From Chrysomallon squamiferum (lineage: Eukaryota > Animalia > Mollusca): 64,000 nt of DNA. Below are positions 11,901-34,750 of this stretch, in pieces. Under the pieces are notes generated by a model. It worked only from the letters and a program-made list of their open reading frames with translations, was not told the origin of the DNA and did no database searches. The translations under genes and the position numbers were made by a program. Numbering within the stretch: the first letter of the stretch is position 1; every line of letters starts with the position of its first letter. The DNA lies in contig CM022677.1 in the NCBI GenBank assembly GCA_012295275.1, positions 17,360,001 through 17,424,000 on the forward strand, written 5' to 3'.

Positions 11901-14900
11901 GAAAATTAGACAGAAACCATAATACTGAGCTTTAACAGAACTCAAAATAAATAACACATTTTCTTTTTCCAATTCTACCTGCGTTTCCAATGTGTGCTAA
12001 CGTGTGGCCCACAGTGAACACAGCGATGAGACACCCCACCCACTTGTGAAGCTGAATATTCTCATCAAGAGGCAACAGATGGGCGAGATGCGTCGTCCTG
12101 AAGTACGTCAAGGTCACCCGCATCATCAGCATCAGAATGACGCAGCAGTTGAGGTTCAGACACATGCCGCAGCCGCGGGCGATGATGATGCACCAGTTGG
12201 AGGAGCGGTAGAGCCACGCGCCGCCGAAGAAGAGGACGACGTTGATGCAGACGTAGATGACGACGATGAGAATGAGAGAGAGGTTGTTGAGCAGAAACGT
12301 CCTGTTGAAGTATTTTCTGAACACTGATTTCTTTGGTGGCGGCTTCGTTGGTCGTTTTAGCCACTGTGATGCGCTGTGGAATAGATAAGGATGATGAGGA
12401 TGATGTGAATGATTATTAATGATGATGATGATGATTAATTATGTTAATGATGATGATGATGATAGTAATTGTGGTAGATTAGTGATAACGTATGGCAGTC
12501 AAAAGTAGCAATAGCAATAGGAAATTTAGTAGTAGTAAAGAAGGACTAGCAATAGTAACAGTATAGTAATTTTAGTAGCAGTAATAGTAGGACTAGTATT
12601 AATAGCAATAGTAAATTAGCGGTAACAGTAGTAATAGTAATAGTAATTTTAATAGTATTAATAGTAGAACTACCGTGAATAGTAATAACAGCATTAACGT
12701 AGTACTAACTGTAATAGTAGTATCAGTAACAGTAGAACTAGTTGTTGGTGCTGCTGTTCTTGTTAATATTGTTATAATAGCTGCTACTGTTCTTACAGTT
12801 TTTCTATTGAATCAGAATAATGGTTATTATACCATAGCAGTGATTGTACAGCTAGACTCTGAATTCATTAAATATAGAATAACCTCCAGCAGCAACATCA
12901 TAGTAATAGTAACATTAGTAAAGTAGTAGGAATAGTAATATTATTAATAACAGTAGTAGTAGCAACAGAAGCTATTGTTGTTTTTGCTGATTATCAGATT
13001 TAAATGAATCAAAATAGAAAACATTTATTTATATATGTATTTGTTTGTTTGTTTGTTTTGTTTTGTTTTGTTTGTTTGTTTGTTTGTTTTGTTTGTTTGT
13101 TTGTTTGTTTGAATACCTCAGAGTTAAATTTCCCATTATTTCTGGATGGCGTTCCATTGCTGTTTTCAACTCCAAAAACGAAATCCCTCCACTTTTATCC
13201 AAGTCCATTTCCTTGAACAACGCATGCGCTAACGACTCCAGTGCTTCCGTCGACAGCTTCAGTGAGCTCTCCACCATGCACGACGACAGCACCCTCTTCA
13301 CCTCACTTATACTGATAGAACCACTGCCTGAAATAAGAAGAATCGAAAAAGAATCATCTCAGAAATTCAAAACCTAAATTATATCCATCCATCATCCTCT
13401 AATATATCTCTTTTTTGGAAAAGTTGTCTCTCTCTCTCTCTCTCTCTCTCTCTCTCTCTCTCTCTCTCTCTCTCTCTCTCTCTCTCTCTCTCTCTCTCTC
13501 TCTCTCTCTCTCTCTCTCTCTGTCTCTCTCTCTCTCTCTCTCTCTCTCTCTCTCTCTCTCTCTCTCTCTCTCTCTCTCTCTCTCTCTCTCTCTCTCTCTC
13601 TCTCTCTCTCTCTCTCTCTGAATAGACAGACCTGCTAGTAGTAGGTAGATGGATTAGTTAGATTAAAGATAAGATACAGACAGACCTACTAGTAGCAGAC
13701 AGATGGATTGGTTAGACAAAAAGATAAGATAGAAACAGACAGACAGTGACAGATAGATATATGGATAGACAAATAGATAGTCAGACAGACAGATAGATAG
13801 ATAGATAGATAGACAGACAGACAGACAGAGACAGATAGATAGATAGATAGCTACATGGCAATCATATTAAAACTCAAATACCATCTGCATCATATACATC
13901 GAACAGAAATTGTAGTTTGTCTTCTGAACTTCCGCTTCCTGTGAGTCTGCGCAGTGAACTGATTAACTCGTTGACTTCCAGTTTTCCACTTCCATCTTTG
14001 TCCATTAATTTGAAAAACCGTTCAGCAAAGAATATCTGACAAATAGTCGCAATAAAATAAATAAATAAATAAACATAAAACATTAACGAGGCATTTAGTG
14101 CCGGAAGGTTAAAAATCTTTGACATTAAAATAATTTAAATTTAATAACAAACTTAAATGCGGACATTAGAATGTATTTCTTTCTTGAAGAATATACGTTT
14201 AGGATGATATAATAATATCAAGCGTGTGATAGTAGTAGTAATAGATATAGCACCAAAGTTGCAGCAGTAGCAGTTGTAGTATTAATAATGGTATAGCATA
14301 GTAGAATAACAGTAGCCGCAGCAGTAGTAGTTGAAGTAAAAATAATTACAGTTATAATATTATTATTGGTACCATGTGTTATGGTACTAGTATTAGTAAT
14401 AAAAGTAGTAAGCCGGAATAGTCGTAATACTGGTAGAATCATCAGCAGTAGCTGTAGTAATAATTGTATTATTGGTATAACAGTTACAGTTGCGGTTTTG
14501 ATGAAATCACACGTAACATTAAATCTATAGCTAGAATTAGTAAAACGTATTTTAAAATGAAGCTGAGCGAATTTAAGGTATTATTTAAGTAATTTACATA
14601 AAACATTCGTCTTTTCCGTTCAGCGTTGTACTAAATTTACATAAAATGTACGTATTTTACGTTCAGTGCTGTTCGAAATTTACATCAAACTTACATTTTT
14701 TACGTTCAGCGGTATATTTACATAAAACTTACGTCTTATATGTTCGGTGTATGAAATTTCACATAAAACTTACGTCTTTTACGTTCAGTGTTTCTACGAA
14801 ATTTATATAAACTTACGCCTTTTACTTAAGTGTTGTACGAAAAATACGTAAAACTTACGTCTTTTACGTTCAGTGATATACGAAATATACATAAGACTTA

Positions 14901-34750: not shown

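Follow-up and report, generated by a model that had tools for sequence, protein, structure and literature searches.

The window, i.e. the whole stretch of 64,000 nucleotides of Chrysomallon squamiferum DNA that was analysed, contains a NOX5 gene on the minus strand, and the second intron of this gene holds a long tandem array whose unit corresponds to the junction between coding exon 2 and the intron. The features of the gene and the array are as follows.

34596..34750, minus strand: likely NOX5 coding exon 1, with an ATG and a GT donor, in the frame that joins exon 2
33561..33672, minus strand: NOX5 coding exon 2 (112 nt), N-terminal EF-hand region, with an AG acceptor and a phase-0 donor
33548..33589, minus strand: unit 0, the 3' end of coding exon 2 plus the start of the intron, with the authentic donor GAC/GTAAGT (GT at 33560-33559)
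33284..33547, minus strand: degraded gene-proximal units 1-6
14590..33589, minus strand: splice-junction minisatellite of 450 units, ~97% of the 19,525-nt NOX5 intron 2
14036..14589, minus strand: non-repetitive 3' end of intron 2 (~555 nt), with a pyrimidine-rich AG acceptor
13882..14035, minus strand: NOX5 coding exon 3 (EF-hand), with a Pfam EF-hand match
5849..13327, minus strand: NOX5 coding exons 4-14 (EF-hand, ferric reductase, FAD- and NAD-binding domains)

The spliced model of NOX5 contains 14 exons (34750 to 5849, minus strand) with GT-AG boundaries at all introns and a single frame of 767 aa that is free of frame breaks. The product shares 545 of 764 aligned residues (71%) with the NOX5-like isoform X1 of Gigantopelta aegis, and a protein search with one downstream exon gave G. 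aegis NOX5-like and Lottia gigantea NOX5 as the best matches (best 5 of 91 candidates). The Pfam domains of the gene stand in the order EF-hand, ferric reductase, FAD-binding and NAD-binding. The identity of the gene as NOX5 is supported by Pfam, tblastn and the spliced frame, which place N-terminal EF-hands ahead of the ferric reductase/FAD/NADPH-binding domains in one frame. Exon 1 begins with MFSNTAGNKILP, and its G. aegis counterpart begins with MFSKPAANKVLP. Coding exon 2 shows 82% identity to residues 51-88 of G. aegis isoform X1. The initial annotation had called this exon EF-hand 1; the label is supported by aligning the exon with the N-terminal parts of the NOX5 proteins of Lottia and G. 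aegis, but Pfam gave no match on coding exon 2 alone. The label also leans on the layout of human NOX5.

The acceptor AG of exon 3 lies at 14037-14036 and the exon starts at 14035. The annotated isoform X2 of G. aegis NOX5 starts at a Met in the exon after intron 2 and is without the first EF-hand region; this Met is conserved here in exon 3. Skipping of exon 2 shifts the frame and leads to a stop at residue 61. The remaining 12 introns measure 87-923 nt, and intron 2 is therefore long only because of the array. An open frame of 85 codons with coding-like composition and no Pfam match lies upstream of NOX5 on the same strand (48025-48282, minus).

Four other features were identified in the window.

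45805-46552: minisatellite with a 32-bp unit (23 copies at 92% matches), next to a possible short exon (45650-45790)
53428-57808, plus strand: trypsin-like serine protease gene, with exons that cover Pfam Trypsin positions 18-44, 103-129, 136-177 and 177-220
54781-55857, plus strand: acceptor-side junction repeat in the trypsin-like gene, with six degenerate 29-nt copies of the intron end/exon start
60400-63460, minus strand: C2H2 zinc-finger gene, in which the frames 60446-60868 and 60799-61278 overlap in different phases

The copies of the junction repeat in the trypsin-like gene derive from the exon at 55848-55940, from which they differ by at most 7 mismatches in 29 nt; none was found on the other strand. 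These copies are interspersed with a 52-54-nt AT-rich unit at 54.8-55.8 kb. An exon for Trypsin positions ~45-102, which presumably hold the catalytic Asp, was not found in the three plus-strand frames of 53890-54820, and it may have been lost, misassembled or missed. The overlapping frames of the zinc-finger gene suggest short introns, frameshifts or sequence errors, and a 51-bp internal repeat occurs in the same gene at 62266-62395. Inspection of the 32-bp minisatellite by eye revealed no link to a splice junction.

TRF reports a single array in intron 2, at 14591-33589, with a period of 42 and its multiples. Wrap-around alignment on the minus strand divided 14590-33589 into 451 segments, the last of which, a 14-nt partial, was excluded to leave 450 units. 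A 19-kb satellite of an exon/donor junction within NOX5, as proposed in the initial annotation, is thus borne out, and the gene around it is intact. The monomer had been read as 29 nt of exon end followed by 13 nt of intron, and this agrees exactly with unit 0 (33589-33548). Unit lengths of 42 nt (192 units), 43 nt (189 units) and 41 nt (30 units) are the most common, and there are 241 distinct sequences among the 450 units. The donor GT is present in 434 of 450 units, GTAAGT is intact in 361 and GAC/GTAAGT in 308. The opposite strand of the array contains no GTAAGT, i.e. the repeated splice signal is sense-oriented. The 9-nt core GACGTAAGT occurs 309 times in the array and nowhere on the remaining sense strand of the window. 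Matches to an 18-nt unit motif number 401 across the window, of which the first 200 were listed, whereas 0.29 are expected from shuffled sequences.

Variant units recur as patchy duplicated blocks (~24-26, ~42 and ~50 units). A strict higher-order period was not found across the array, where units at the best lags differ by 6.6-7.0 changes per unit against 7.4 overall. The longest perfect duplication inside the array is 399 bp. The 14 edge units average 7.8 changes from the consensus, whereas the 435 interior units average 4.7. The array shows the traits of the junction minisatellites (“mirage”, F7 type): a head-to-tail tandem repeat with a minisatellite-sized unit; a terminal unit that crosses the exon/intron boundary of a real gene, the boundary being placed by homology and reading frame; and a homogenised interior with diverged edges and block duplications.

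The CpG observed/expected ratio is 3.1 in the array and 0.8 in the remaining window; the CpG-rich array could be a large methylation target within the gene body. Variation clusters in a 5-nt block from -18 to -14, which holds the G of a cryptic AG, and at +10/+11. A TACGTA variant at +10/+11 (~106 units) echoes the ACGT word of the exon part and can form a short palindrome.

The conservation of the repeated donor was examined by site and by recent change. Positions +1 to +6 match the consensus in 95.8% of units, compared with a median of 92.3% elsewhere (Mann-Whitney p = 0.09). GTAAGT ranks 6th of 42 hexamer windows, and the exon-derived AAAAGA is better kept. The earlier statement that GTAAGT is among the best-preserved parts of the monomer therefore stands for its per-site match and has to be qualified for its rank. 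The variability noted in the middle of the monomer was recovered, with positions -18, -17, -15 and -14 matching the consensus in 43-69% of units. Among the four G's that stand in a CpG, G+1 is the best preserved, with 6 G>A changes in 449 units against 19, 36 and 78 at the other three.

The recent-change test was confined to units 10-439 with four near-identical flanking units, and pairs with more than 4 central differences were excluded, so that an amplified variant is not scored repeatedly. With the strict cut-off, which left 160 pairs, the donor showed 11.6 changes where base class predicts 12.3 (P 0.47-0.54). With the relaxed one (237 pairs), 16.2 changes were observed against 28.8 expected (Poisson P 0.007); class-matched permutation gave P 0.046, and 0.12 when 8 polymorphic sites were left out. 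The per-position check proposed in the initial annotation thus does not place the donor robustly above other sites. Retention of the donor by selection is a weak hint that is not borne out by the two tests alike, and a little selection is compatible with them. The case for selection against the cryptic AG of the unit is unproven. No site is less conserved than its G at -18 (43%), yet the A is retained in 95% of units and adjacent sites vary too. Selection against the nearest donor was considered and rejected. Loss of GT is more frequent at the edge (4 of 14 units) than in the interior (13 of 435) and is equal to general edge decay (0.18 vs 0.19 per site), and a public run, X1, seems to keep the donor of unit 1.

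Of 10 public runs listed, eight, from three studies, contain the query exon in whole or in part, and none of these is recorded as an RNA run. For four of the eight, contigs were aligned to exon 2 and the first units; one of the runs compared may be the source of the window itself. Unit-like contigs at high depth were found in 4 of 4 runs. The summed contig depth of unit over flank is ~150-750x in the three runs with the flank covered, a ratio that varies among runs and is not a copy number. The edge sequence differs in run X1, in which a 110-nt contig corresponds to the unique gene-proximal edge with 6 differences and 1 gap, compared with at least 14 edits elsewhere in the array. The donor of unit 1 appears intact in this run, as judged from depth sums and not from letters. 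By eye, a loose end of run X1 agrees in 26 of 30 letters with the acceptor-side flank at 14553-14582, and it is the one glimpse of this end of the array in another run. Reading it as an allele that lacks the array was rejected: the loose end connects that flank to a last unit devoid of GT, as is unit 449 of the window, and a second contig covering the exon beyond 33595 is also lacking. The contigs of run X3 give no cover on the unique exon part, a gap that carries no weight. Over exon 2 and the upstream intron (33561-33847), run X1 differs from the window at 8 sites in 289 nt and run X6 at 2 in 152 nt; none of the differences listed falls within the 29 nt common to exon and array.

The origin of the array can be read from its relationship to the exon. 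The peptide across the exon end is EFRTALDVKD/VFFAERFF in G. aegis and EFRTALNVKD/IFFAERFF here (/ marks the junction), and this conservation identifies the exon end as old coding sequence. The real junction (unit 0) is one change away from the array consensus, whereas the other 449 units average 4.8 changes and only 5 of them are as near to it. Unit 0 sits at the array edge, yet the neighbouring edge units average 7.8. The conserved peptide together with the nearness of unit 0 to the consensus indicates that the array most likely grew out of the gene, as the initial annotation had held; in-place derivation from the exon-2/intron-2 junction of NOX5 is likely on this comparison. Most simply read, the units spread outwards from the junction, and constraint kept the coding copy as it was. 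The starting event would have been a 42-nt duplication across the junction, amplified by slippage and unequal crossing-over, and later growth would have proceeded via block duplications of ~1-2 kb. The intronic copies would have drifted, with the coding copy remaining close to the ancestral state. An influence of the array back on the exon was also considered; unit 0 agrees with the consensus at all 17 near-neutral sites, as do 17% of the other units, and the effect is not significant. A search of metagenome contigs with an exact 21-nt unit motif gave no matches, which is uninformative for an animal locus.

Two other accounts of the array were weighed against growth from the gene. If a short repeat had been over-expanded by the assembler, the array would be an artefact, which the initial annotation had named as a possible refutation; the 19-kb length does rest on the assembly, and no contig of the four runs spans the array or bridges exon to array. 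The 241 distinct sequences among 450 units speak against such an expansion, as do the position of the single N of the window (47688, outside the array) and the loose end of run X1 that matches the acceptor-side flank. Units in the contigs of all four runs and the absence of any perfect duplication longer than 399 bp make an artefact unlikely, and we infer that the block pattern fits repeated unequal exchange better than assembler expansion; on balance an artefact is extremely improbable. The array could instead belong to a genome-wide satellite family that inserted at the exon end or converted it, with the likeness to the exon being secondary, and one loose end of run X3 does begin unit-like and then diverge. 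This too is very improbable, as the 29 coding nucleotides, whose peptide is conserved in G. aegis, stand in register with the unit and the depth ratio of unit to flank, although not a copy number, is of the order expected of one locus.

In the favoured explanation, the array is probably a tolerated passenger minisatellite that derives from the gene and is still turning over, and its extra donors are mostly ignored. Recognition of exon 2 would depend on the exon's own acceptor and on the first donor that follows it, the behaviour demonstrated by experiment for human F7. Later donors would be passed over, and rare splicing errors would be degraded. Deeper donors, if used, would give very long, stop-filled exons and hence degraded RNAs. 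Of the 433 intact pseudo-donors, only 2 lie in frame ahead of the first stop. Internal acceptors and donors could form 1499 pairs of 10-300 nt, and only 14 of these combine a length divisible by three with the absence of a stop. An AG 17 nt upstream of the donor is kept in 180 of 449 units, and pseudo-exons from AG/donor pairs within units are possible. Masking of the donors by RNA structure was rejected, since none of the six array segments folded was more stable than its shuffles (z 0.04-0.98). With two junction repeats in 64 kb, this genome seems to produce such repeats readily, which would favour a mutational over an adaptive origin. Against a purely passive array stand the borderline deficit of donor changes in the relaxed test and the well-kept G+1. 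By analogy with IFI6 and CBS, in which two pseudo-donors are used besides the true one, silence of the array donors is not guaranteed. The precedents reach at most 25 pseudo-sites in mammalian cells or lancelets, and it is by extension that we infer the same behaviour for 450 copies in a mollusc.

An alternative that is compatible with in-place origin from the gene is leaky, unselected alternative splicing, in which the nearest intact pseudo-donors would be used at a low rate, as in IFI6 and CBS. It would yield either NOX5 in which 14, 57 or 71 additional residues separate the first two EF-hands, or frameshifted transcripts destined for degradation. The 42-nt unit equals 14 codons and has no stop, and the frame stays open for 92 codons beyond the true donor. 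The donors of unit 4 (33389) and unit 5 (33347) are intact, in frame and upstream of the first stop (33284), and splicing from them would insert 57 or 71 aa, respectively. In run X1 the donor of unit 1 is apparently intact as well, and the available part of PMC1557585 gives the IFI6 and CBS precedent. The donor of unit 1 is dead in the window (GAC/AT at 33518), and in the F7 experiments outlined in that part of PMC1557585 the most upstream site was used exclusively, even against stronger pseudo-sites; low-level leakage of this kind is unlikely here.

Several regulatory roles had been proposed for the sense-oriented decoy donors, among them a U1 landing array, suppression of premature polyadenylation and support of stepwise splicing. 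A selected array would supply hundreds of U1 sites that shield the long intron from premature cleavage or that compete with the true donor, and in the latter case array length would tune the amount of NOX5 or the inclusion of the first-EF-hand exon. The 361 sense-strand GTAAGT sites are present as described; the unit donor matches the U1 consensus at 8 of 11 positions, and U1-complementary sites lie on the nascent strand as telescripting needs. Telescripting also calls for cryptic polyadenylation signals close by that are used more once U1 binding is lost. The strict test gives no signal of donor conservation, and AAAAGA is better kept than the donor; the relaxed test gives borderline support, and G+1 is well kept. 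The array contains 2 AATAAA, a density of 0.1 per kb compared with 3.3 per kb over the remaining gene, along with 13 ATTAAA and 215 TATAAA, the last of these beside donors. TATAAA is a weak variant of the polyadenylation signal. The array therefore offers little canonical signal whose suppression would matter, yet the 215 TATAAA count in favour of a role. Protection of an intron that is long only through the array would answer the array's own problem. Recursive (ratchet-point) splicing requires a juxtaposed YAG/GT within the intron. The array has one YAGGT in 19 kb, and AG and GT of the unit are 17 nt apart, which argues against stepwise splicing. The annotated G. aegis isoform X2 without this EF-hand would fit a switch in exon inclusion, but skipping of exon 2 brings the frameshift and early stop described above. 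An association between the length of repeats and splicing is reported for thousands of human loci in the available part of PMC10078293. Taken together, a selected regulatory array is decidedly unlikely. It is quite improbable that selection keeps the array as a length-variable dial which loads U1 along the 19-kb intron and shifts isoform balance.

If that dial did exist, the forms balanced would be full-length NOX5, NOX5 with extra residues after the first EF-hand and exon-2-skipped RNA, and copy number would set the calcium sensitivity or the amount of the oxidase. Tuning of NOX5 by array length would be a new kind of splicing dial, for which the sequence evidence is weak. Read as a passenger, the array is an extreme natural test of 5' splice-site choice, with one true donor ahead of ~430 near-identical ones over 19 kb, most of which stand closer to the acceptor than the true donor does. 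The first-donor rule of F7, established for at most 9 copies, faces 50 times that number in a mollusc. The locus also illustrates that duplication of a single junction can lengthen an intron ~35-fold with the reading frame unbroken. The array is real, most likely derived from the gene and an unusually large case of a known repeat type, with no robust sign of function.

The closest known counterpart is the VNTR of human F7 intron 7, in which the unit is 37 bp, 5-9 units are present, the pseudo-sites are functional and only the most upstream donor is used, according to the available part of PMC1557585 (Borensztajn et al. 2006). As in NOX5, the repeat begins with a unit that straddles the exon/intron boundary, so that a row of pseudo-donors identical to the true donor comes after it; the unit lengths are also similar. 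The F7 unit includes 4 exon nucleotides and is repeated 5-9 times, whereas 29 exon nucleotides and ~450 units are found here, and the present array extends over 19 kb, fills 97% of its intron and has a block structure. First-donor use in F7 was shown by experiment, whereas for the array described here it is a prediction.

Other donor-side junction repeats are described in the same part of PMC1557585. The 31-bp VNTR of CBS intron 13 (15-20 units) allows two pseudo-donors to be used besides the true one, and this VNTR is confirmed in the part of PMC1395315 available. IFI6/6-16 contains 25 pseudo-sites, two of which are used besides the true donor. Only the true donor is reported as used in LMNB2 (100 bp, 10-15 units) and in PDGF intron 4 (81 bp, 16-18 units). 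These four repeats share the donor-side layout with NOX5 and have ~18 to 45 times fewer copies. A title in the references of PMC1557585 states that the LMNB2 repeat covers most of an intron, which, as far as a title indicates, resembles the array in NOX5. Another title there reports that a substitution in the second repeat of CBS prevents alternate splicing; on the wording of that title, it resembles the dead unit-1 donor in this window.

The “mirage” minisatellites of amphioxus have been identified in Adh3, troponin C, the globins BflGb6 and BflGb9, and PGBD5, and in the available parts of PMC3087553 and PMC3902484 they are reported not to disturb splicing. As described there, they are invertebrate repeats in which a donor or acceptor boundary has been duplicated in tandem, and their interiors are homogenised whereas their edges have diverged. 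Across the human and amphioxus cases, it is mainly the first donor that is used. The window examined here likewise contains a donor-side and an acceptor-side example. BflGb6 has 3-6 units in cephalochordates according to the same sources, whereas ~450 units occur here in a mollusc. No mollusc or giant junction repeat was found in the literature searched, most subscription papers being outside that search. The layout of the array has already been described in the available parts of PMC1557585 and PMC3087553, and what sets it apart is its size, with ~450 copies where the published cases compared have no more than 25 pseudo-sites.
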